DNA of 64,000 nucleotides from an uncultured Gemmatimonadaceae bacterium (GTDB lineage Bacteria > Gemmatimonadota > Gemmatimonadetes > Gemmatimonadales > Gemmatimonadaceae). A model generated the notes under the pieces. It did not search any database and was not told where the DNA came from. It saw only the letters and a program-made list of their open reading frames with translations. The stretch is taken from assembly GCA_963716745.1 (NCBI GenBank), contig OY970320.1, forward strand, positions 1,504,001 through 1,568,000, in the 5' to 3' direction. Of this stretch, positions 12,131 to 35,935 are shown piece by piece. The first letter of the stretch is position 1. Each line of letters opens with the position of its first letter. Made by a program: the position numbers and the translations under genes.

Positions 12131-12169
12131 GTTAGTACCATACGCCAACGCCATACGCGCCCCTGCATG

Positions 12170-15100
12170 TTACCAGTCGAACCTCGCCGAGAACTGCAGC
12201 TGGTAGTACGAGTACACCGCATTCACGGTGGGGAACTGGATCATCGTCGGCTGGTACTGCACGATCGGGATCCCCGACTGCGGGTTCGCGCGGTTGATCG
12301 CCGCCGACTGGCCCGTCACGTTCAGGAGGGAGACGTCGGTGAAGGAGCTGCCGCCCGCCTGACGTACGAGGCCCCACGAGCCGTTGAGCATGTTCGGCAG
12401 ATTGAAGATGTCCAGGCGGAGCTGCACGTTGTGGCCGGCTGATGCGCGGGAGGTTCTGGATGATCGTTGCGTCCATTTGGTTGACCCAGGGATTCCGGCA
12501 CGCATCGCGCGGCAGGATCTCGCCCTGGTGGTCGCGCAAGCAGGGCGTGCTCTGGATCAGGTTATTCAGCGCGAGTTGCTGCGTGTTCACTGGCACCGCG
12601 GCGTGACTGCCGCTCGCCGGGATCGGTGAGAATTGCACCTGCGTGGGATCGAACACGTTCGTCGGCACGTAGATCAGGTCGTTCTGGTTGCCGTCGCCGT
12701 TCACGTCGCCGCGGCTTCCCGATCCGCCGTAGACGTAGTCGAACGTGGAGCCGGAGTAGCCCGAGTAGATGAGCGAGAAGTCCGTCCTCCAATTCTTCCA
12801 CGGGAATGTGTACGTGCCGGAGATCAGCAGCTTGTTCGGCTGGTCATACGCCGACGGCGTCAGGTTCTGCGCCAGAATATTGCCGCCTTCCTCGCGGCCG
12901 AACTGCCAGTTGGAGATCGCGCGGCTGGAATTGAGTGACGCCACGTCGTACGAGTGCGAGAACGTGTACGCCGCGCGCATGTCGAGCGAGCTGAACACGC
13001 GCTTGTGCAGCTCGACTGTCAGGTCGTACGCGTAATCCTTCGACTGGTTCACGATGTCGATCACTTCCGAGTACCGGTGCGAAGCATCGTACACGAACGT
13101 GGTGGGCACGCCCGAGGCGGCGATGTTGCCGTACATGTAGCGGCCGTTCCGGCCGATGTATGTCGAGTCGTAGTTGATGTTGCGGTTGACGTAGAAGAAG
13201 TTGTTCAGCCCGCGCGTATACAGTCCCTCGAGCGTCAGGAAGAAATCGCCCGGCAGACGCGTGTCGTACGCGAGATTCGCGCGGAAGACCTCGGGATACT
13301 TGAGGTTGTTGTCCATGATGTCCACCGGACCCACGACGCCGCCCGCAATGCCGGCGCCGTTCGGACACGTCTGCGGCGGCGACGCCACGGATCCCGCGTT
13401 GAATACCGGCGTGATCGGACCCGGATCGGTCGCTGCGGCCGCACATCAGGAACCCCAGGCCGCTGCCCGAGTTCTGCCAGGAATTCGCCACCCACACCAT
13501 TGCCGGCCGGCCGACGAACACACCGGCGCCGCCGCGGATCTGGTTCTTCTTCTCGCCATCGAGGTCCCAGTTGAAGCCGACGCGCGGCTCCCACTGGATG
13601 TTGCCGCTCGGCACCTGCGATGTGTTCGCCTGGCGGCCCATCGATTGGAAGAGGCCGCCGAAGATGGAATCGAAAGACGCCGTATACGGCGGCGAATTCG
13701 TGATCACCGGCACGTCAATGCGGAGGCCGAAGACCATGTTGAAATTCGGATTCGGCGTCCAGTTATTCTCGACATACGCGCCGTATGTGACGCCTTGCGG
13801 CTGGGCGACGATCGCGGGCGGATTGGTGAGCGGGAGAGAGACACGATAACGATTGGCGTTCCCCGCCTCGAGCGAATCGAGCGAGTTGAACGTCCACACG
13901 CCGTACGAACTCTCGGTGAACAGATTGGTGAACTGCCACAACTCCGCCGACACGCCGGCCGTCACGCGATTGTTGTCGCCGACGAAGAAGGAGTAGTTGT
14001 CCTTCAACTGCAGCATCTTCTGCTGCAGCGAATTGCCCTGTGAGAATTGCTCTGCGCCGCCGAGTTCACTGATCGTGGCGCTCTGGAGTCCGGGCACCGT
14101 CACATTGATCGTGGGGAACTGGCCGGCAATGGGCAGCCGCAGGTCCGAGATCGTCTGATAGGCGGCGATGAACTCGTTGCTCGATCCGCTCTGCATGGTG
14201 GAGTTGAGCTGCAACACCAAGCTGTTGTTGTTGTTGTTGATCGTGTAGAGTTGCGACGTCAGCGGGAACGTGGACGTGCGGCTGAATACGTCGATGCTGC
14301 CCCCGGCATAGTTGTCCCGCAGCGTGAGCGTGCTGTTGATCTCCGGGAGTGCGAGGTCCAAGCGTCCGAACGCGTTCGTGAGAGGATTCGCGTTGTTCGT
14401 CGCGCCGCCGGTGCCGGCCGGGATCCCCAGCGCCGTGAGATCGTTGATGAACCGCTGCGTGGTTGCCGAGTCCACCGTGAGCGGAGATGCGGCGCCCGGT
14501 GCCTGCCCGATATACGGGCCCGTGCTCGGCTGCGCGCGGAGCTGCCACTCGCCGTTCGCGAAGAACTGCAGCCGGTCCTTGATGATCGGGCCGGACACCG
14601 ACGCACCGTACTGCTCGACGTACAGGCCCGAATTCTGGATGAACGGCACATTCGCCGCGTAGTTCTGGTTACGGAAATAATAGAAGATGTCGCCGTCGAA
14701 TTCGTTCGTGCCGCTCTTGGTCACGGCATTCACGAGCGCGCCGTTGAAGCCCGAGAAATTCAGGTCGTACGGCGACAGCAGCACCTGATACTCCTTCACC
14801 GCGTCCAGCGAGATCGATTTCCCATTGGACTGGCCGCCCGGCTGACCGGTGCTGCCGAGGCCGAACATGTCGTTGCTGTTCGCGCCGTCGATCTGGATGT
14901 TGTTATAGCGGTTGTTCACGCCGCCCGCCGACGTCGAGCCGTTCGGCTGCGTGGCCACCTGCGGCACCGTGCTCATGAAGTCGGTGAAGTTGCGGTTCAG
15001 CGTCGGCGCACGCTTGAGGATGCTGTCATCCACGAGCGAGCCGGTGCCCTTCCGGTTCGGGTTGATCACCGGCGAGAGCTGGTTCCCCGCCTCGACCGTG

Positions 15101-15477
15101 ATCGCCGCGAGCGTGGCGGCCTGCGGAATGAGCTGGAAGTCCAGCACGGCGCGCTGGCTCAGCGAGAGACGCGCGATCTTATCCGACTTCGGCCGGAACC
15201 CGATGCGCCGCACCGTGACGGTGTACGGTTCGCCCACCTGGAGGCCGGACACGAAGTAGAGACCCGACGGCCGCGTCTGCACGGTCACCGACGCGCCGCT
15301 CGCGCCGCTCACGATCTGCACCTGCGCCGCTTCGACCGGCTCCTTCGTCGTGGAATCGGTCACGGTCCCTGAGATCGCCGCGGTCGTCGTCCCCTGGGCC
15401 GCGATGCGCGAAGGAACTGCGACAGCCGCCGTCACCGCCACTACGGCGAGAGCGCGCAGCCAACGAATTGTGATCAT
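12170..15477 (-). CDS. Oar-like TonB-dependent receptor with N-terminal carboxypeptidase-regulatory domain; frameshifts near 13440 and 12440
   Basis: Signal peptide, ISGTVTDS, NNIQIDGA, VNAVTKSGTNEF and EPRVGFNWD; continues through ORFs 12132-13388 and 12170-12505 and ends QFSARFDW (beta-barrel C-terminal signature). Confidence 0.88.
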
Positions 15478-15599
15478 GAGAGGACCTCTCCCTGGGTGAT
15501 GACAGGTGGGGCGAACGAGCGGGCCGGCGGTATACGCCGCCGCCGGGGGCGACGGGGCAAAACTATCTCGCCCACGGCTCGGGCGTCAAGAAACCAATA

Positions 15600-24150: not shown

Positions 24151-24777
24151 TCAGGCCGCGCTGAGATTCCGCCAGTCGACCCGCCATTCGCAGCGCCCTT
24201 CGTTGCGCGCGGCGCAGCGCACGTGGTCCACGCGGCCGCTGGTGGCGCCGAGCAGCCGCAGCAATTCGTGCAGCGATTCCTCGTAGTACGTGCAGCCGAG
24301 GGAGTTCGGCGCGCTGTCCACCGTCACCGAGCTCTCCACCTCCAGGATGAGGTGCGCGCCGGAGCGGCGCACGACGCCGCCCCAGTATCGCTCCGCGATC
24401 TTGCGGGTCTGCGCGAGCGCCATGGGACGTGAGAGGAGCGATGGCAGTACGGCGATCGCCTGGCGCGTGATGACCGGGATGCGGGCATAGGTCTCGCGCG
24501 CCACATAGCGGCCGGCGGCGCGGAAGGCGGCCTCGGCGTCGGGGCGGCGGCCGATGAGCGTCGCGAGCGCGACCGCTTCCTCCTGCGCGGGTCGAATGCC
24601 GCGCTTCACCATGTCGCCGTAGCGGCGGATCTGCGCGTACACCGTGTCGCTGAGCCCGAAGCGCTTGGTGCGAAGTTCGGCGACGAACTCGGCCTCGAGA
24701 TCGCCATCGGGACTGTCGACGCTGCGAACGGCTTCGAGGAAGGAGAGCGGGATGAGGGCGTCGACCGTGGCGTTCAT
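24151..24777 (-). CDS. Hypothetical protein with V4R/BchJ-like C-terminal domain
   Basis: CTYYEESL...HVRCAARNEGRCEW Cys pattern; start at MNATVDAL. Confidence 0.6.
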   Translation of the reverse strand: MNATVDALIPLSFLEAVRSVDSPDGDLEAEFVAELRTKRFGLSDTVYAQIRRYGDMVKRGIRPAQEEAVALATLIGRRPDAEAAFRAAGRYVARETYARIPVITRQAIAVLPSLLSRPMALAQTRKIAERYWGGVVRRSGAHLILEVESSVTVDSAPNSLGCTYYEESLHELLRLLGATSGRVDHVRCAARNEGRCEWRVDWRNLSAA

Positions 24778-24877: not shown

Positions 24878-25740
24878 ATGAACATCTTCTTGATAACGGA
24901 CGACGGATTCGCGCTGCGCATGCTCGTGGGCGCCGCGATCGCTGATCGTCATCGCCGTGATCGCGCTGCGGCGCGGCTCGCTCACCAAGTCGGGCGCCAT
25001 CACCGCGGCGGCCGTGGGCACCGTGAGCGTGAGTGCGGGGTATGGATGGGGAGCGATGCTCATCGCGTTCTTCGTGAGCGCTACCGCGCTCACGCACTAT
25101 CGCGAAGCGGAGCGGGCGCAGCGCACGGCGGGCGTGCTGGAGAAGGAGGGCGCGCGCGATGCGCTGCAGGTGCTGGCGAACGGGGCGTTGTTCGCCATCG
25201 CGGCGGCGGCGATCAAGGCACGATGGGGACTCAAGTACGGGACGATGGACACGCTGCCGGCGTGGACATGGCTCTGGACGGCGATCGGCGGCGGAGCGAT
25301 CGCGACGGCGTGCGCGGACACGTGGAGCACCGAGATCGGCACGCTGTCCGATGCGCCGCCGCGGTCGATCGCGACGTTCAAGATCGTGCCGGCGGGAACG
25401 TCGGGGGGCGTAACAGCGCGAGGATCGGCGGCGGCGGTGGCGGGCGCGTGCTTCATGGGCGCTGTCGCGTGGGCGGTGCGCTGGCCGGCGATGCTCGCGG
25501 CGGCGACGGCGGCGGGGGGAATAATCGGCGCGTTCGCGGATTCTCTCATTGGGGCGACGCTGCAGGGACGGCGTCAGTGCCCCAAGTGCGGCGTCGCAAC
25601 CGGAGCAGCTGGTGCACGATTGCGGCACGGAAACGGTGGCGGCGGGAGGTCTCGAGTGGCTCGACAACGATCTGGTGAATCTGCTCAGCACCGGCTTGGG
25701 CGCCCTGGCGGCGGCCGCGATCGCTTCCGCGTTCGTCTGA
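24878..25740 (+). CDS. DUF92 (TMEM19/VTE6-like) membrane protein; frameshifts near 24940 and 25600
   Basis: RGSLTKSGA, RDALQVLANG, ADTWSTEIG, GTSGGVT, DSLIGATLQ and, after the shift, LDNDLVNLLST. Confidence 0.85.
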
Positions 25741-25747
25741 GCGCGGC

Positions 25748-27196
25748 ATGACCGCGCTCGCCGCCGGTTCTGCGCCGCGCGTGCTCCTCGTGAGCACGAA
25801 CCGCGAACGCCAGCCGATGCCGGTGGTACCGAACGGCATCGCCTGTGTCGCGGGCGCGCTCAAGGCAGCGGGGCACCAGACGCGCGTGCTCGATCTCGCG
25901 TTCTCGCGCGACCCGCACGCCGCGGCCGGCGCCGCCGCGCGCGAGTTCGCGCCCGACGTCATCGGTGTCTCGATGCGGAACATCGACAACAGCGATCTCA
26001 TCGCGCTCCGGCATTACACGCCCGAGGCCACCGCGCTCCTCGCGACGCTGCGGGCCGCCGCGCCGCGCGCCCGCGTGATCGCGGGCGGTGCCGCGTTCGG
26101 GGTCGCGCCCGAGGCGCTCTTCGACACGCTTGGCGTCGACTACGCGGTGGCCGGCGATGGCGAGCGCGCCACGGTCGCGCTGCTCGACTCGCTCGCCGCC
26201 GGCCGCGCGCCCGGCGCGATCCCCGGCGTCGTACAGCGCGGCGACAGCGGGACGAAGCTCACGCCGCCCGGCGGCGACGCCGATCTCGATTCGCTGCCCG
26301 CGGCACACATGCACAAGTGGCTCGACCTCGCCGCGTACGAGCGCCGCGGCGGCACGGTGCCCATCCAGACGAAGCGCGGCTGCGTGTTCAAGTGCATCTA
26401 CTGCACATATCTCAACGTGGAAGGTTGGGGCTACCGCCTGCGCGACCCCGATCTCGTCGCGCTCGAGATGGAAGAGCTGCATCGCGAGGCCGGCGTCACG
26501 CACTTCGAGTTCGTGGATTCCACCTTCAATGCACCACCGCGCCACGCGATGGATGTGTGCGATGCGATCCTGCGCCGGCGCCTGCGCGTGCATCTCGACA
26601 CCACGAACTTCACGCCCGCCACCGCGCCCGCGGAGCTGCTCGCGCTCATGCGTCGCGCCGGCTTCCGCTGGCTCGGCATCACCGCCGAGAGCGCGAGCGA
26701 CTCGGTGCTCGAGCGGCTGCAGAAGGGTTTCGACGCCGCGCAGGTGCGCGCCGTCGCGGAGCGCGTGGAACAGGCGGGCATCGGCGTGTTGTGGATCTTC
26801 CTCGTGGGTGGGCCGGGCGAGACGCGCGAGACACTCGAAGAGACGCTACGCTTCGCCGCCTGGCGACTGGGCCGCGGCGACGCCGTGTACCTCACCGTCG
26901 GCCTGCGCATCTACCCGGGCACCACGCTCCACAATATCGCGCGGGACGAGGGCGTGGTCGCCACCGGCGATCCACTCCTCGTGCCGCGATTCTACTTCAC
27001 GAGTTCTCTCGATTTCGAGAGCACGGTCGCGCGCCTGCGCGCCTTCGCGTCCGCACATCCGCGCTTCATGTTCTCCGCCGACTCGCGTTCGCCGCTGCTG
27101 CCGCACCTCACGCGGCTCGCCGGCGTACTGCGGCTGCCCCGTCCGCATTGGCGCTACATGGGCTTGTTCCAGCGCATCGCGCGCGCCGTGTCATGA
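25748..27196 (+). CDS. B12-binding radical SAM protein
   Basis: N-terminal cobalamin-binding domain (PDVIGVSMRNIDN, GGAAF, GDGE); RGCVFKCIYC CxxxCxxC; LRIYPGT. Confidence 0.9.
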   Translation: MTALAAGSAPRVLLVSTNRERQPMPVVPNGIACVAGALKAAGHQTRVLDLAFSRDPHAAAGAAAREFAPDVIGVSMRNIDNSDLIALRHYTPEATALLATLRAAAPRARVIAGGAAFGVAPEALFDTLGVDYAVAGDGERATVALLDSLAAGRAPGAIPGVVQRGDSGTKLTPPGGDADLDSLPAAHMHKWLDLAAYERRGGTVPIQTKRGCVFKCIYCTYLNVEGWGYRLRDPDLVALEMEELHREAGVTHFEFVDSTFNAPPRHAMDVCDAILRRRLRVHLDTTNFTPATAPAELLALMRRAGFRWLGITAESASDSVLERLQKGFDAAQVRAVAERVEQAGIGVLWIFLVGGPGETRETLEETLRFAAWRLGRGDAVYLTVGLRIYPGTTLHNIARDEGVVATGDPLLVPRFYFTSSLDFESTVARLRAFASAHPRFMFSADSRSPLLPHLTRLAGVLRLPRPHWRYMGLFQRIARAVS

Positions 27197-28468
27197 CCGA
27201 ACGCATCGATGTGATCGTCGTAGGCGGCGGACCGGCGGGCAGCTCCGCCGCCTGGCATCTCGCGCGCGGCGGCGCGCGCGTCGTGCTGCTCGATCGTGCC
27301 CGCTTCCCGCGCGACAAGCCGTGCGCCGAATACCTGAGCCCCGAAGCCTCGCGGATCCTCGAATCGATGGGCGTGCTCGGCGCGTGCGAGCGCGCGGGCG
27401 CGGCGGCGCTGGCGGGCATGATCGTGCGCTCGCCCGCCGGCACGGTCGCGCAGGGCGCGTTCACGGCGGCGCACGGATTCCGTCCGTTCCGCGACCGCGG
27501 ACTCGGCCTGCGTCGCACCGCGCTCGACGCGCTCGTGCTCGGAGCAGCGCGGGATGCGGGCGTGAACGTGATCGAGGGGGAGCAGGTGACTGATGTGATC
27601 CGCGACGAGCGCGGCGTGGCGACCGGCGTGCGCACGCTCGAGAACGGCGCGGCGCGCGAGCGGCGCGCGGCGCTTGTCGTGGGCGCCGACGGCCTGCGTT
27701 CCGTGGTCGGGCGCCGGCTCGGCCTCACACGCTTCGCACGCGTGCCGCGCCGGCTCGCATTCGTGACGCACTACCGGGGCATACGCGGCATGTCAGGCTT
27801 CGGCGAGATGCACGTCGAGCGTGACGGCTACTTCGGCCTCGCCCCGGTGGAAGACGGATTGACCAACGTCGCGATCGTCGCGCCGGTGAGCGTCGCGCGC
27901 GCCGCGCGCGGACGCGCCGGACCGTTCTTCGATGCGTGGATCGCGTCGCGGCCGCAACTCGCCCCGCGGTTCGCCGGCGCGGAGCGCGTGGGCGCGGTGA
28001 GCGCCACCGGTCCGTTCGCGCAACGCGCGCGCCGCGCGTGGTCGCCGGGAGCGGCGCTAGTCGGGGATGCCGCCGATTTCTTCGACCCGTTCACCGGCGA
28101 GGGCATCTATGCCGCGTTGCTGGGCGGGGAGCTGTTGGCGCCGTTCGCGCTCGCGGCGCTCGGTGCATCCACCGCGAAGATCGCCGCGGAGTCGCTCGCC
28201 GGCTACGATCGCGCGCGGCGCCGCGCGTTCGGAGGGAAATGGGTGGTCGAGCGGTTCGTCGGACTCGCGGTGGCGAGTCCCATCGCTCATGGACCGCATC
28301 ACGCGATCGTTGGCGGCCTCACCCGACATGGCGGATCTCGTGGTGGGCGTCGGCGGCGACTTCGTACCGACGAGTGCCGTGCTTACGCCGCGGTTCCTCG
28401 CACGCTTGCTGTTCGGCATGCCTCGCGTCAGGCCGGCGGCCGTCCAGCCGCTCACCCGGGCGCGGTGA
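27193..28468 (+). CDS. FAD-dependent oxidoreductase (geranylgeranyl reductase/FixC family); frameshift near 28285
   Basis: DVIVVGGGPAG, FPRDKPCAE, VGADG and LVGDAADFFDPFTGEGI. Confidence 0.88.
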
Positions 28469-28470
28469 CC

Positions 28471-28944
28471 ATGATCGATCCCGATCTCTTCCGCAGCGTG
28501 CTCGGCCGCTTCACGAGCGGCGTGACCGTCGCCACGGCGCGCGATGCGTCCGGAGAGGACCACGGCATGACCGTGAGCTCGTTCTGCTCGCTGAGCCTCT
28601 CGCCGCCGCTCGTGCTCATCTGCGTGGAGCAGAGCACCGAATTACACCGCGTGCTCGCGACTGCGCGCGCGTTCGCGGTGAACGTGCTGGCCGACGACCA
28701 GGAGATGATCTCGCGGCGGTTCGCCGAGCCCGACGCGGGGCGTTTCGAGGGGCTCGCCTTCACGCGCGGCGTGAGCGGCTGCGCACTGCTCGCCGGCACG
28801 CTGGCGTCCATCGAGTGCACGGTGCGCGCCCGGCACCCGGAGGGCGACCATACGATCGTCGTCGGCGAGGTCACGGCCGCGGCAGCGCGCGATGGCCGGC
28901 CGCTGCTCTACTACCGCGGCGGCTATACCGTGATGGAGCGCTAG
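28471..28944 (+). CDS. Flavin reductase (HpaC/DIM6/NTAB family)
   Basis: FRSVLGRFTSGVTV, SLSLSPPLV, GDHTIVVGEV and PLLYYRGGY. Confidence 0.92.
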   Translation: MIDPDLFRSVLGRFTSGVTVATARDASGEDHGMTVSSFCSLSLSPPLVLICVEQSTELHRVLATARAFAVNVLADDQEMISRRFAEPDAGRFEGLAFTRGVSGCALLAGTLASIECTVRARHPEGDHTIVVGEVTAAAARDGRPLLYYRGGYTVMER

Positions 28945-28945
28945 C

Positions 28946-29654
28946 GTGGCGTCGCCCCTCACCCCGCGGCGCCGGCGCGGTATCGAGATCCTCGACGATC
29001 CGACGCTTGCCCCCGAGTTGCGATTGCGCTCGCTCGCGGATGTCGAGCCGCGCCAACGCGCTCTTCGGCGGCACGCGCGCGGTGCTGGCCGAGCTGGAGA
29101 TCGCGCTCGACGCATCGCCGGCGCGCGAGGCGACGCTGCTCGATGTCGGTACCGGGCTGGGCGATATCCCGCGGCGCGCCGTCGCGATGGCGCGCGCGCG
29201 TGGACGCACCCTGCACGCGGCCGGCGTCGAACTCGCCGAGCCGCTCGCGCGCGGCGCGCGTGGCGACGAGTTCCCGGTGGCCTGTGCCGACGCGCGCGCG
29301 CTCCCCTTCGCCGACCGGAGCTTCGATTTCGTCACCTGTTCGCAACTGCTGCATCACTTCGACGGCGACGCGGCGCTCGCGCTGCTGCGCGAGCTGCACC
29401 GCGTGGCGCGGCGTCTCGTGATCGTGAGCGAACTACGCCGCAGCTGGTTGGCGGCCGCAGGGATATGGCTCGTGTCGTACCCGCTGCGCTTCCATCCGGT
29501 GAGCCGGCACGACGGAGTCGTGTCGGTGTTCCGCGGTTTCCGCCGCGGCGAACTGCGCGAACTCGTGCGCGAAGCGGTGTCGCGCGATGCCGACGTCCGC
29601 GACCGGCTCGGCTTCCGCACCACGGCCGCCTGGATCCCGGTGGAGGTCGCGTGA
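28946..29654 (+). CDS. Class I SAM-dependent methyltransferase; frameshift near 29048
   Basis: RRRGIEILDDP N-terminus; LLDVGTGLGD, LPFADRSFDFV, LLHHF and HDGVVSV. Confidence 0.88.
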
Positions 29655-30196
29655 CCGAGCTCGAGCTGGCGCCTCCGTACGAATTGGGCGCGATGCCCGG
29701 CGGCCGTCTCATGGAGACCGTCGATGAACGCCTCGTACGCGCTCCCGTCGGCGCCATGTTCGAGCTCGCGCGCGACGTGGAGCGCTGGCCCGACCACCTC
29801 GCCCACTACCGCTGGGTGCGGTTCCACGAGCGCGCCGCCGACGGCGGTGGCATCGTCGAGATGGCGGCGTGGCGCCCGTTCGGCATTTTCGGCATCCGCA
29901 CCTGGTGGATGTCGGAGATGCAGGTGGACGACGCGCGGCCGGCGATACGGTTCCGTCACATCATGGGTGTCACCAAGCGGATGGACGTGGAATGGAGCTT
30001 CACGCCGGCCGACGGCGGGACGCACGTGCGCATCGTGCACGTATGGGACGGCCCGCGCTGGCCGCTGATCGGCGGCTTCGCCGCCACACGCGTGATCGGC
30101 CCCGTATTCGTGCACGGGATCGCCTCGCGCACGCTCGCCGGACTCGCGGCCGCGGCGGAACGCGGCTCGAATGGCACTCTCACGGGTAGTGACTGA
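29651..30196 (+). CDS. SRPBCC/START-family polyketide cyclase-dehydrase
   Basis: FELARDVERWPDHL, IRFRHIMGVTKRMDVEWSF; GTG start overlaps the methyltransferase stop. Confidence 0.8.
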   Translation: MTELELAPPYELGAMPGGRLMETVDERLVRAPVGAMFELARDVERWPDHLAHYRWVRFHERAADGGGIVEMAAWRPFGIFGIRTWWMSEMQVDDARPAIRFRHIMGVTKRMDVEWSFTPADGGTHVRIVHVWDGPRWPLIGGFAATRVIGPVFVHGIASRTLAGLAAAAERGSNGTLTGSD

Positions 30197-30197
30197 G

Positions 30198-31441
30198 ATG
30201 AAACGACGCGTCGCGATCACCGGCATCGGCGCCATCACGCCGATCGGCACCAGTTCCTCGGGATTGTGGGACGGGCTTCGCGCGCAGCGCAGCGCCGTGC
30301 GGGAGCTCACGCGCTTCGATCCGTCGATCTTCCGCAGCCACATCGCGGCCGAGGTGAACGACTTCGTCCCCACGGATCATCTGGAAGCAGAAGCGCGCCA
30401 AGCGTCTCGACCGATTCGGGCAATTCAGCGTCGCCACCGCGCGCCTCGCGATCGAGGACTCCGGCATCGATCTCGCCGTCGAGGACAAGGAGCGCGATCG
30501 GCGCGATGATGGGCACGGCACTCGGCGGCGTGGGCTACGCCGAGGAACAGTGCGGCGTGTTCTACCGCGGGAGCGTGAAGCGATGTGGATCCGATGCTCG
30601 CGCTCACGGTGTTCGGCGGCGCCTCGAGCTGCAACATGGCCATCGAGTTCGGCGTGCAAGGTCCGAACAGCACTAACGCGATGAGCTGCGCGAGCGGCAC
30701 CATCGCGATCGGCGATGCTTTCCGGCAGATCCGCGATGGCTACGCCGACGTGATGATCGCGGGCGGCGCCGAAGCGCCGCTCTGGCCGCTCTGTTACGGC
30801 GCGTTCGCGCTCATCCGCGCCATGAGCACGCGCAACGACGATCCGTCGGCGCGCGTCGCGTCCGTTCGACAAGGATCGCGACGGGTTCGTGATGGGCGAG
30901 GGCGCGGCGGTGCTCATGCTCGAGGAGATGAGCGCGGGCGAAGGCGCGCGGCGCGCGCATCTACGGCGAGGTGTGCGGCTACGGGATGAGCAACGACGCG
31001 TATCACATGACCGCACCGCGCCCCGATGGTTCGCAGGCGGCGCGCAGCATGCAGCGCGCGCTCGACGACGCGGGCCTCGCCCCCACCGAGATCGGCTATG
31101 TGAACGCCCACGGCAGCTCCACACCGCTCAACGATTCCACCGAGACCCTCGCGATCCGCCGCGTGTTCGGCGACCACGCCGCCGCGCTGCCGGTGAGCGG
31201 CACCAAGGGCTATTACGGTCACGCGCTGGGTGCGAGCGGCGCGATCGAGGCCGCGATCTGCGCCCTCGCGATGGAGCAGGCGTGGCTGCCGCCCACGGTG
31301 AATCTCGATTCGCCGGATGCGGCATGCGCGCTGGATCACGTGCCGCGCGCGGGGCTGCAGGGCAGGCCCGAACACATCCTGTCGAACAGTTTCGGATTCG
31401 GCGGCATCAATGCCGCCCTGGTGCTCCGCCGCGCCGACTGA
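30198..31441 (+). CDS. Beta-ketoacyl-ACP synthase II / type II PKS KS-like; five +1 frameshifts (about 30388, 30496, 30581, 30853, 30934)
   Basis: RRVAITGIGAITPIG, AMSCASG (Cys), PFDKDRDGFVMGEG, NAHGSST and GHALGASG (His/His), SNSFGFGGINA. Confidence 0.88.
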
Positions 31442-31472
31442 CTTGTCCGGTTCGCGCGCTATCTTACTGGGC

Positions 31473-31982
31473 ATGCTGAATCGTTCGTTGGGCTGCGCCG
31501 CACTCGTGCTGGTCGCGCTCGCCGCGTGCAACGGGCCGGAACGCGGCCCCGACGCCGAGAAGATCGTCTCGCATTTCGTGCGCGCCGATACGCTCGGCAG
31601 CTGGGACGAGGCGATCTCGCTCGTTGCGCCGTGCGACACGAGCGCAACCGCACCGCCGATCCGCGTCACGCGATCCGTGTCCGTGGGCGGCGCGCAACAA
31701 GGCAAAGGCAAGGACAGCATCCTCGTCGCCGCGTACTATCAGGTCGCGGGCACGGCGGTATCGGGCGAGACGCTGGGGAACGGCGTCACGGTGTGGCACT
31801 TTACCCCGGCCGCCGCCACCGACACTGTCACCTTCCGCCTCGGCCCCGACAGCTTCGGCCGCCTCATGATCGCCTGCGGCCCGCTTCCGGTTCATCGTGC
31901 GCCCATGGAGATGCCCGATCAAGTCACGCAGATGGACTCGGCATCGCGCGCCGCGTTCGACGCGGCGGTCGCAAGACGCTAG
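31473..31982 (+). CDS. Hypothetical lipoprotein
   Basis: MLNRSLGCAALVLVALAAC lipobox; typical codon usage. Confidence 0.65.
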   Translation: MLNRSLGCAALVLVALAACNGPERGPDAEKIVSHFVRADTLGSWDEAISLVAPCDTSATAPPIRVTRSVSVGGAQQGKGKDSILVAAYYQVAGTAVSGETLGNGVTVWHFTPAAATDTVTFRLGPDSFGRLMIACGPLPVHRAPMEMPDQVTQMDSASRAAFDAAVARR

Positions 31983-33925: not shown

Positions 33926-33971
33926 GTCATGAATCTGGCGACGGCCCCGTCGCGCATCTAGAATGTGTCCC

Positions 33972-35935
33972 ATGTCTGACGATATCGACGTCCTCCTCCA
34001 CGAGCACCGGAAATTCCCGCCGCCCGCGAATTTCGCGAAAGGGGCGCACGTCAATTCCACCGCAATGCACGAGCGCGCCGCGAAGGACTACGAAGCGTTC
34101 TGGGCGGAGATGGCGCATGAGCTCGAGTGGTCGAAGCCCTGGAGCAGAGTGCTCGAGTGGGATCCGCCGTGGGCGAAGTGGTTCACCGGCGGCACGCTGA
34201 ACGCGAGCGTGAATTGTCTCGACCGCCATGTGCGCGGCGCGCGTCGCAACAAGGCGGCGCTCGTGTGGGAGGGCGAGCCGGGCGATACGCGGACGCTCAC
34301 ATACTGGGACCTGTACCGCGAGGTGAACAAGTTCGCGAACGTGCTCGACTCGCTGGGCGTGAAGCGCGGCGATCGCGTGGCGATCTACCTGCCGCTCATC
34401 CCCGAGGTCGTGATCGCGATGCTCGCGTGCGCGCGCATCGGCGCGCCGCACTCGGTGGTGTTCGGCGGCTTCTCGAGCGACAGTCTGCGCGACCGGATCA
34501 ACGATGCGCAGTGCAAAGTGCTCGTCACCGCCGACGGCGGCTACCGGCGCGGCACGATGCTGCCGCTCAAGCGCAACGCCGATAAGGCGCTCGAGGAGAC
34601 GCCGTCGATCAAGCACGTGGTAGTGGTGAAGCGCACCGGCGATGGCAGCGAGAGCCACGCCGAGATGACGGAGGGGCGCGACCACTGGTGGCACCGCCTC
34701 ATGAAGAACGCGGCGGCGTACCGCGAACCGGAGCAGATGGGCGCCGAAGATGTGCTCTACATCCTGTATACGAGCGGCACCACCGGGATCGCCCAAGGGC
34801 ATCGTGCACACCACCGGCGGCTACATGACCGTTGCGCACGCCACCACGAAACTGGTGTTCGACCTGAAGGAGGACGACGTCTACTGGTGCACCGCCGATG
34901 TCGGCTGGGTCACCGGACACACATATCTCGTGTACGGGCCGCTCTCCAACGGCGCGACGTGTGTGATGTACGAAGGCGCCCCCGACTGGCCCGAGAAGGA
35001 TCGCTTCTGGGAGATCTGCGAGAAGTTCGGCGTCACGATCTTCTACACCGCGCCCACCGCGATCCGCGCGTTCATGAAGTGGGGGAAGGAGCACGTGCTC
35101 AAGCACGATCTCTCCCGCCTCCGTCTGCTCGGCTCCGTGGGCGAGCCGATCAATCCGGAAGCGTGGATCTGGTACCACGAGAACGTCGGCAAGGAGCGCT
35201 GCCCCATCGTGGACACGTGGTGGCAGACGGAGACCGGCAGCATCCTGATATCGCCGCTCCCGGGCGTGACGCAGGACCAAACCCGGCAGCGCGACCATGC
35301 CGTTCCCGGGGATCTTCGCCGATCTGCTCGACGCGAACGCGAGACCCATCGCGGTGGGCGGCGGCTTGCTCGCGATCACCAAGCCGTGGCCTTCGATGCT
35401 TCGCACGATCTGGGGCGACCCCGACCGCTACGTGCAGACGTACTTCTCGAAGTGGAAGGACCGCCCCGATCTGTACTTCCCTGGCGACGGCGCGAAGCGC
35501 GACGACGAGGGCTATTTCTGGATCCTGGGCCGCGTGGATGATGTGCTCAACGTCGCAGGCCATCGCATCGGCACCATGGAGGTGGAGAGCGCGCTCGTCT
35601 CGCATCCCGCGGTGGCCGAGGCGGCGGTGGTGGGCAAAGCGCATGAGCTGAAGGGACAGGCGATCGCGGCGTTCGTGACGCTGCGCGAAGGGCAGAGAGC
35701 CTCGCCCGCCCTGCGCGACGACCTGCGCGAGCACGTCGCGCAGAAGATCGGCGCGCTCGCCCGCCCCGACGACATCCTCTTCTCGGCCGACCTGCCGAAG
35801 ACGCGCTCCGGAAAGATCATGCGCCGGCTGCTGCGCGACATCGCCGAAGGACGCGCGCTGGGCGACGTGACGACCCTCGCCGATCCCGCGGTCGTCGCGA
35901 AGCTGAAGGATCAGTACGAGGCGACGGAGTCCTGA
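33972..35935 (+). CDS. acs: Acetyl-CoA synthetase; frameshifts near 34790 and 35275
   Basis: [47 protein letters not shown] and [12 protein letters not shown]. Confidence 0.95.

Follow-up and report, generated by a model that had tools for sequence, protein, structure and literature searches.

In hidABC-type operons, where the genes stand in the order hidA>hidB>hidC, HidC makes an alkylresorcinol, for which HidA is the methyltransferase and HidB the presumed hydroxylase (PMC8086630 and PMC6836626, in the parts of these sources available to us). Another described system is the radical S-adenosylmethionine (radical SAM) enzyme of the Kuste2803 type, which comes from FabF-rich 'ladderane' clusters of anammox bacteria, where it occurs with a methyltransferase; its function stands as unproven in the available part of the source (PMC2649909). 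The locus described here shares features with both. It is an operon in a 64-kb window (the whole stretch of DNA analyzed, positions 1,504,001 to 1,568,000 of contig OY970320.1, assembly GCA_963716745.1) of the genome of an uncultured Gemmatimonadaceae bacterium (G000), which consists of a single contig of 3.29 Mb with 67% G+C. The operon encodes, in order, a DUF92 membrane protein, a B12-binding radical SAM enzyme, a flavin adenine dinucleotide (FAD) enzyme, a flavin reductase, a SAM-dependent methyltransferase (MT), an SRPBCC protein resembling the aromatase/cyclases (ARO/CYCs) of type II polyketide synthases (PKSs), and a stand-alone β-ketoacyl synthase (KS). We propose, with a probability of about one in two, that it makes a ring-headed, methylated membrane lipid of the resorcinol, hydroquinone or quinone type, the KS and the cyclase-like protein replacing the type III PKS of a phenolic-lipid pathway; this exchange is suggested because it is the simplest account of the conservation, neighbor and distribution patterns set out below.

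Coding on the plus strand is continuous from 24.9 to 31.4 kb, with several changes of frame, as seen from third-position G+C and stop-to-stop frames. Pfam and NCBIfam scans confirm the identities of seven co-oriented genes, which either overlap by 4 nt or lie 1-7 nt apart. A preliminary description of this DNA had already seen seven co-oriented genes with overlaps or gaps under 10 nt and no acyl carrier protein (ACP) or chain-length factor (CLF), and both statements hold: the junctions run from -4 to +7 nt, neither an ACP nor a CLF is encoded in the operon or beside it in G000, and the three matches to PF00550 (PP-binding) in the entire genome are acpP and two genes of an aryl-polyene-like cluster. 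That the gene set should be syntenic elsewhere, on which the same description had made its interpretation depend, is borne out as well. A scan of one genome per species yielded 527 relatives of the radical SAM enzyme; the best 80 loci were fetched, and all are from Gemmatimonad* records bar one labelled Burkholderiales. The genes for the radical SAM enzyme, FAD enzyme, flavin reductase, MT, SRPBCC protein and KS stand in that order in 61 of the 61 loci that reach the KS; the remaining 19 of the 80 end earlier at a contig edge, with the order kept as far as the contigs reach, and wherever the fetched contigs extend upstream the DUF92 gene and a divergent 206-aa gene are present. A second KS-like gene, as expected of a CLF, was not found in these 61 loci, in 12 further loci, or in the flanks.

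Beyond these loci, the operon was followed through an even sample of 151 Gemmatimonadota genomes. The SRPBCC ortholog is present in 100 of them (a tally that includes the unpublished genomes G086 and G125), with 25 of 31 genomes positive in family f1 (G000, also positive, being left out), 65 of 71 in family f2 and 0 of 13 in family f10. The radical SAM subfamily occurs in just 11; its gene is in the KS operon in nine of these, beside a type III PKS gene in one, and in one (G022, L017) on a contig with a methyltransferase gene, the SRPBCC gene lying on another contig. The six-gene form without the radical SAM gene is common, including in complete genomes of the same family (L140-L142; for example G096). 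In class-level relatives only MT>FAD>SRPBCC>KS is retained (L132, L133, L134, L137, L139), and in one (L135) only SRPBCC-KS; the surroundings are variable and unrelated, with genes for an ACP, a CLF or an acyl ligase all absent. The flavin reductase, missing from the four-gene core in L132, L133, L137 and L139, is accessory; the DUF92 gene, intact in the same-genus genome G003, is confined to Gemmatimonadales versions of the operon and was not found beside the MT-FAD-SRPBCC-KS core of the class-level relatives. The SRPBCC gene is always immediately upstream of the KS gene, and its stop overlaps the KS start in many loci. These patterns mark MT>FAD>SRPBCC>KS as the putative oldest core, its minimal unit being SRPBCC-KS, usually with MT and FAD, and the DUF92, flavin reductase, V4R-like and radical SAM genes as putative later additions. 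The whole is best explained as an intact, vertically conserved biosynthetic operon of Gemmatimonadota. In one 2.0-Mb genome (G141, L136), a lone SRPBCC gene is flanked by genes for cation efflux and for a DUF4126 protein, without KS, MT or FAD; its neighbors match those in L132, and it looks like a remnant.

The catalytic triad of the KS (C163, H303, H340) is invariant in 26 of 26 aligned orthologs, and its motifs are visible in the KS pieces of the window. G000 has a separate housekeeping FabF, encoded in a plsX-fabH-fabD-fabG-acpP-fabF cluster at 300-311 kb; the operon KS is 47% identical to it, and both copies are likewise present in five other genomes. KS phylogeny was examined in a quick tree of 45 rows (SH-aLRT) and in a finished LG+G4 tree of 31 rows, from which half (12) of the 24 operon KSs and the long-branch rows KS3_G168b and Sgosh_KS are omitted; two KS-alpha/CLF pairs of Streptomyces, FabFs encoded on plasmids, a NodE-like KS, and the FabF and FabB of E. 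coli serve as references. All operon KSs fall in a single clade (SH-aLRT 99 in the 45-row tree, 100/99 in the 31-row tree), the FabFs from the fab clusters of these genomes group with E. coli and Clostridium FabF (90/85), and the operon clade is sister to Streptomyces KS-alpha plus CLF (94 in the quick tree and 97/99 in the 31-row tree, with four type II references). Constraining the operon KSs to group with the FabFs costs 14.6 log-likelihood units (approximately unbiased (AU) test, p 0.037, for a hypothesis named after inspection of the tree). The best PDB matches of the KS are FabFs, at 418 bits for B. subtilis FabF as compared with 309 for the actinorhodin KS. The KS is, by these comparisons, a distinct FabF-like paralog that leans toward the KSs of type II PKSs and is a candidate PKS. 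A predicted complex of KS and SRPBCC protein scored 0.00 in both runs, made with two alignments, and is uninformative either way.

For the SRPBCC protein, a profile of 28 orthologs was searched against all PDB sequences, and the matches below E 1e-6 are type II PKS ARO/CYCs only (BexL at 2.1e-9, WhiE-ORFVI at 3.4e-8, TcmN at about 1e-7), the next family following at 5e-3. The AlphaFold2 model (pLDDT 92.5) finds WhiE-ORFVI, TcmN and ZhuI at the top of a Foldseek search, with WhiE and TcmN taking ranks 1-4. The family has invariant polar residues of its own: a His-Tyr-Arg motif, R75, H103, H130 and R160. A search of representative sequences gave 456 clusters with E of 1e-10 or less, and the clusters listed in the Atlas are mostly from Gemmatimonadota. 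Apparent fusions occur with the MT (P0125, 403 aa), with the FAD enzyme (P0241, 520 aa) and with a P450 (P0157, 306 aa); these could be true fusions or gene calls running through overlapping stops.

The link to phenolic lipids comes from type III PKS genes, which were surveyed in the same 151 genomes by matches to PF02797 over the Pfam cut-off. They occur in 9 of these, and none was found in G000; six of the loci were examined. In two genomes of one genus, both without the SRPBCC-KS operon, the genes stand in the order DUF2071>MT>FAD>type III PKS (G173, L115:4800-8606; G153, L116). The type III PKS-linked MT of G173 is 33% identical to the operon MT over 201 aa, and the linked FAD enzymes of G173 and G153 are 29% identical to that of the operon; the operon and type III PKS-linked MTs both score best on PRK06202, and the FAD enzymes of both kinds score best on GG-red-SF and then on QhpG. 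When G000 was searched in return with the type III PKS-linked MT, the operon MT was the only match. A third genome, from a distant Gemmatimonadota family (G057, L118:5241-7843, on a contig of 53% GC), has a two-gene operon in which a radical SAM gene comes first and its stop overlaps the beginning of the type III PKS gene. This radical SAM enzyme is 41% identical to that of the operon over its full length and, like it, scores best on TIGR04072 while staying under the cut-off (316.1 bits); searched against G000, it finds the operon enzyme at 317 bits and the next protein at 60.8. The two condensing systems also tend to occur in different genomes: the SRPBCC gene is missing in 7 of the 9 type III PKS genomes as opposed to 44 of the 142 others, and within families f1 and f2, 3 of 12 genomes without the SRPBCC gene but 2 of 91 with it have a type III PKS (Fisher p 0.011, relatedness being ignored). 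Within genus g69, G153 and G173 carry the type III PKS operon and G174 (L131) the KS operon; the operons of G173 and G174 were not found at the same genomic position, their flanking genes being different.

The tailoring proteins can be given probable roles. The radical SAM enzyme has class B architecture, with an N-terminal B12-binding domain before the radical SAM domain; the cysteines of its CxxxCxxC motif (C212, C216, C219) do not vary among the 7 sequences compared, and its best NCBIfam model is TIGR04072 'lipid biosynthesis' (310.4 bits, E 1.6e-92, below the cut-off of 360). It is an accessory tailoring enzyme, probably a C-methylase. The FAD enzyme, the two best NCBIfam models of which are TIGR02032 (GG-red-SF) and then QhpG, is probably a ring hydroxylase, and the flavin reductase, matched by the HsaB, HpaC and StyB models, is likely to supply it with reduced flavin. 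The best model of the MT is NF004851 (PRK06202). A reading of the FAD enzyme as a halogenase was set aside: its matches to Trp_halogenase and CmlS are weak, and at the position corresponding by eye to the halogenase motif WxWxIP, the sequence reads GYFGLAP.

We infer the substrate, the iterative non-reducing condensation, the aromatization, the order of tailoring and the product to be as follows. The stand-alone KS would take a fatty acyl thioester out of primary metabolism and add a few malonyl units, leaving them unreduced, on the housekeeping ACP (or on coenzyme A); borrowing of the housekeeping AcpP is plausible because a dedicated ACP is absent. The SRPBCC protein would fold and aromatize the poly-β-keto end, the PRK06202-type MT would methylate the ring, and the flavoenzyme related to geranylgeranyl reductase (GGR) and QhpG would hydroxylate it with reduced flavin from the adjacent flavin reductase. 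In the source genus, the cobalamin-dependent radical SAM enzyme would modify the product further, most likely by C-methylation. Outside this scheme stand the DUF92 protein and the V4R-like product of the divergent gene, both lineage-specific accessories.

Several observations weigh against this proposal. No product is known from any Gemmatimonadota, and the operon has no thioesterase or other release enzyme in addition to having no ACP or CLF. The intact KS ortholog P0001 scores 519.9 bits on the NCBI FabF equivalog TIGR03150, over its cut-off of 493.75 (the housekeeping FabF reaches 635, and Streptomyces KS-alpha, at 430.9, stays below the cut-off), and public annotation calls the KS a KAS II (β-ketoacyl-ACP synthase II). 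The references in the KS tree are few, with two KS-alphas, two CLFs and three named FabFs from plasmids and E. coli, and the constraint that was tested is post hoc, with a p no lower than 0.037. SRPBCC folds that are not cyclases match nearly as well as the ARO/CYCs in Foldseek (TTHA0849 at 5.8e-9 and the PYR/PYL receptors of plants, with PYR1 at 4.8e-8). The position of TcmN Arg69 is an invariant Met in the SRPBCC family, as aligned to 2RES, which is labelled an R69A mutant; we take this Arg to be essential in TcmN, and any cyclase chemistry would therefore differ from that of the ARO/CYCs studied so far. The likeness of MT and FAD enzyme to their type III PKS-linked counterparts is modest, and the reciprocal best hit of the FAD enzyme is marginal (65.5 bits, with 61.6 for a flavoenzyme of the aryl-polyene cluster). 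MT and FAD neighbors are found at 2 of the 6 type III PKS loci examined, and a radical SAM neighbor at 1 of 6; three loci have none of these. Two genomes hold a type III PKS and the operon together, their type III PKS loci being without MT or FAD neighbors (one examined), and the counts of complementary distribution take no account of relatedness.

Any reading of the locus also depends on the state of its genes, which in the window carry nine uncompensated +1 insertions relative to the same-genus genomes G004 and G005. These were checked independently over 28000-31500 in soil metagenome contigs that come from four runs, each belonging to a different study. At 6 of the 7 insertion sites in this region the soil-run contigs lack the extra base, each omitting exactly one: at 28284 in two runs (X1, X2), at 29044 in three (X1, X2, X4), and at 30387, 30581, 30850 and 30932 in one run each. 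At 30850, a second run has the omission in 0 of a depth of 16, and at 30932 the omission accounts for about half of the depth (3.8 of 7.77). Site 30495 was bridged by no soil-run contig, and 24943 and 25600 lay outside the region compared. In G003, a short-read genome of the same genus, all seven genes are open, including a KS of 412 aa (P0001). Unrelated genes of G000 are split in a similar way, among them acs, an outer-membrane protein gene, plsX and mqnC: in the window, the acetyl-CoA synthetase gene (33963-35932) is broken over three frames and the gene for an outer-membrane β-barrel protein (12135-15585) is split in two, and in the fab region (L021) plsX and a mqnC/E-like gene are split. 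The completeness score of G000 is 89.8% despite its single contig. Several of the insertion sites in the operon adjoin GATC- or GATG-like words, which may point to a systematic base-calling error.

Were the frameshifts real, the locus would be decaying and non-functional in the source strain. Within 6.5 kb there are nine +1 insertions without compensation, and five of these fall inside 550 bp of the KS; this density, above that of the 5.6 kb upstream (4 indels), can be read in this way. The six sites cleared by near-identical contigs from the four independent runs argue against it, as do the housekeeping genes broken likewise in a single-contig genome that is just 89.8% complete, the attribution of every in-frame stop to the shifts, and the 91-99% identity of the protein pieces to those of G004 although the DNA is 92.7% identical. 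We regard decay as highly improbable and conclude that the frameshifts are consensus errors of the assembly, because they are absent from independent contigs, housekeeping genes are split alike and G003 is intact; the locus is accordingly predicted to be functional. A functional operon might still make no aromatic ring. It could modify fatty acids: a special acyl chain, carried by AcpP, would be elongated by a second FabF, the SRPBCC protein would simply bind or shield the lipid, and the MT, the GGR-like reductase with its flavin reductase, and the B12 radical SAM enzyme would add methyl branches to an acyl or ether-lipid chain or saturate its double bonds. A KS that passes the FabF cut-off, has the elongating Cys-His-His triad and lacks a CLF or ACP partner would suit this role, and so would a FAD enzyme with its best model in the geranylgeranyl reductase family, the members of which reduce C=C bonds, a radical SAM enzyme with its best model named 'lipid biosynthesis' (TIGR04072), and an SRPBCC fold that also matches lipid and ligand binders. 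However, below E 1e-6 the SRPBCC profile matches polyketide ARO/CYCs only, the KS lies outside the FabF clade in the tree, and in phylum-mates the same MT, FAD and radical SAM families adjoin type III PKSs, which make rings and not branched chains; moreover, the MT is by Pfam not of the cyclopropane-synthase type, in contrast to known 10-methyl fatty-acid systems. We consider fatty-acid modification unlikely, if a serious competitor.

An operon for the tailoring of isoprenoid quinones or prenyl lipids would assign the proteins differently again: DUF92 would resemble a prenyl-phosphate kinase, the FAD enzyme would reduce prenyl chains or hydroxylate quinones, the MT would be of the UbiE kind, the SRPBCC protein would bind quinones in the manner of COQ10, and the KS would be a passenger. 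The FAD enzyme does have weak NCBIfam matches to MenJ and Ubi hydroxylases and the MT to UbiE/MenG, and Atlas clusters of the SRPBCC protein carry the automatic name 'COQ10 START domain', but all scores on quinone models are far under their cut-offs. A passenger role fits poorly with a KS whose gene is conserved better than the others and invariably coupled to that of the SRPBCC protein, DUF92 is missing from both minimal units (SRPBCC-KS and MT-FAD-SRPBCC-KS), and no prenyltransferase is encoded in the operon or its flanks; quinone tailoring is accordingly improbable in our estimation. DUF92 is, we presume, the family of the plant phytyl-phosphate kinase VTE6, a literature listing having given no paper with both names. 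Synthesis of a ring-headed lipid by KS and cyclase is the reading we prefer.

The interpretation given in the preliminary description is supported in part, namely in the synteny, a KS that is not the housekeeping one, frameshifts that are artifacts, an SRPBCC protein resembling ARO/CYCs, and a likeness to loci where a methyltransferase and an FAD oxidoreductase accompany a type III PKS, a likeness that now has direct comparative support within the phylum (G173, G153). The Cys-His-His triad that it reported as intact is the one found throughout the orthologs. On the grouping with housekeeping FabFs that it named as a refutation, the KS forms a clade of its own outside them in a thinly sampled tree but still scores over the FabF cut-off; the decaying locus that it named likewise is contradicted by the soil-run contigs. 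A homodimeric state of the KS, which it proposed, is conjectural, as are a poly-β-keto chain and an aromatic product. Two of its points need qualification. The SRPBCC 'cyclase' is aromatase/cyclase-like by profile and fold but lacks the equivalent of TcmN Arg69; and of the two methylation systems, MT and B12 radical SAM enzyme are both present but not both core, the latter being limited to 11 of 151 genomes.

The features of the locus are collected in the table. Upstream of the operon, on the opposite strand, a divergent gene for a 208-aa protein is present in every locus whose contig extends there. The protein has zero Pfam or NCBIfam matches; its AlphaFold2 model (pLDDT 85.9) gives weak Foldseek matches (E 3e-4 to 1e-2, TM 0.35-0.44) to TRAPPC3/Bet3, H-NOX and the phenol sensor domains of PoxR/MopR/DmpR, and an Atlas search finds a V4R-bearing cluster at rank 14. 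This V4R/Bet3/H-NOX-like protein possibly binds a hydrophobic or phenolic ligand, which we offer as a lead only.

Table. Features of the operon and its divergent neighbor; coordinates are positions in the window.
Feature	Coordinates	Strand	Remarks
Divergent 208-aa protein, family unassigned	24151..24777	-	Adjoins the operon and is conserved there
DUF92 integral membrane protein	24878..25740	+	PF01940, 2.8e-52, 178 bits; +1 insertions at 24943 and 25600
B12-binding radical SAM enzyme, 482 aa, intact	25748..27196	+	PF02310 and PF04055
GGR/QhpG-like FAD enzyme	27193..28468	+	PF01494; +1 insertion at 28284
HpaC/HsaB-type flavin reductase, intact	28465..28944	+	PF01613, 3.6e-44, 151 bits
SAM methyltransferase, PRK06202 type	28946..29654	+	PF08241; +1 insertion at 29044
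SRPBCC protein, type II PKS aromatase/cyclase-like, intact	29651..30196	+	PF03364, 8.1e-14
Stand-alone β-ketoacyl synthase (KS)	30198..31441	+	PF00109 and PF02801 pieces in four frames; five +1 insertions (30387, 30495, 30581, 30850, 30932)

Between the KS gene and a pyrophosphatase gene, at 31473-31982, lies a small lipoprotein-like gene without a Pfam match, the product of which has a signal peptide with a Cys lipobox; it is kept in the same-genus genomes G004 and G005 and missing in G003, where the pyrophosphatase gene directly follows the KS gene. An Rfam scan of the window gave zero matches. Elsewhere in G000, 1.6 Mb from the operon, is a second, aryl-polyene-like cluster (C1:3160000-3179000, L022), which includes an ApeI-like dehydratase with a fused AMP-binding domain, a Ketoacyl-synt_2 protein, a DUF3261 protein and a Trp-halogenase-like flavoenzyme, and further KS pieces, a ketoreductase, an O-methyltransferase and two ACPs.

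If the proposal is true, the operon represents, besides type III PKSs and DarAB-type condensation, a third way to lipids of the alkylresorcinol or quinone type, and a minimal one, in which a lone FabF-like KS and its ARO/CYC partner do the work of a polyketide synthase with the housekeeping ACP. A product class would be assigned to a gene set that two of every three sampled genomes carry, in a soil phylum that is abundant but poorly understood; the B12 radical SAM subfamily, tied as it is to both condensing systems, is an uncharacterized enzyme family. A broader conjecture, which we advance tentatively and with more doubt than belief, is that a machine of one KS and one cyclase, without CLF or ACP, took over ring formation from the type III PKS across most Gemmatimonadota, and that this uncharacterized cobalamin radical SAM subfamily, standing beside either condensing system, modifies such phenolic lipids, which would make it the first of the radical SAM enzymes to act on lipids of this class. 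Complete genomes of the same family with the six-gene version (for example G096) make the idea directly testable if a strain is cultured. In the literature searched, the scope of which leaves out most subscription journals and which was available in part, neither a description of the operon nor a pairing of radical SAM enzyme and type III PKS was found.

Among described systems, the closest named family of the radical SAM enzyme is Kuste2803/TIGR04072, and both adjoin unusual FabF paralogs and a methyltransferase, as far as the available part of the source goes (PMC2649909); the operon enzyme differs in scoring below the cut-off of that family and in belonging to a subfamily linked to KS-cyclase or type III PKS genes. 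A review from 2026 on lipid radical SAM enzymes (PMC13459092), in the parts available, does not mention resorcinol, 'type III' or Gemmatimon. With the housekeeping FabF (KAS II), the operon KS has in common the fold, the triad and a passing score on TIGR03150, but it is encoded outside the fab cluster, is about as far from that cluster's FabF as its 47% identity indicates, and falls in a separate clade. With a minimal type II PKS that includes an ARO/CYC, the operon shares a Cys-His-His KS, sister to Streptomyces KS-alpha plus CLF in the tree, and an SRPBCC protein whose sequence-level PDB relatives and top folds are ARO/CYCs; unlike such a system, it has neither a CLF nor a dedicated ACP, its KS passes the FabF model, a Met stands at the position of TcmN Arg69, and it is a cluster of four to eight genes in a Gram-negative soil phylum. 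Of the alkylresorcinol operons of the hidABC/srsABC type, hidA>hidB>hidC, in the available parts of the sources (PMC8086630, PMC6836626), matches the order of MT, FAD enzyme and condensing enzyme in the operon core and in the type III PKS loci of G173 and G153, and the MT and FAD families of the operon match those beside the type III PKSs of Gemmatimonadota, Hid and Srs being known here by description. The operon departs from them in having a FabF-like KS and an SRPBCC protein in place of the type III PKS, and in adding a flavin reductase, a DUF92 protein, a V4R-like protein and, in this genome, a B12 radical SAM enzyme.

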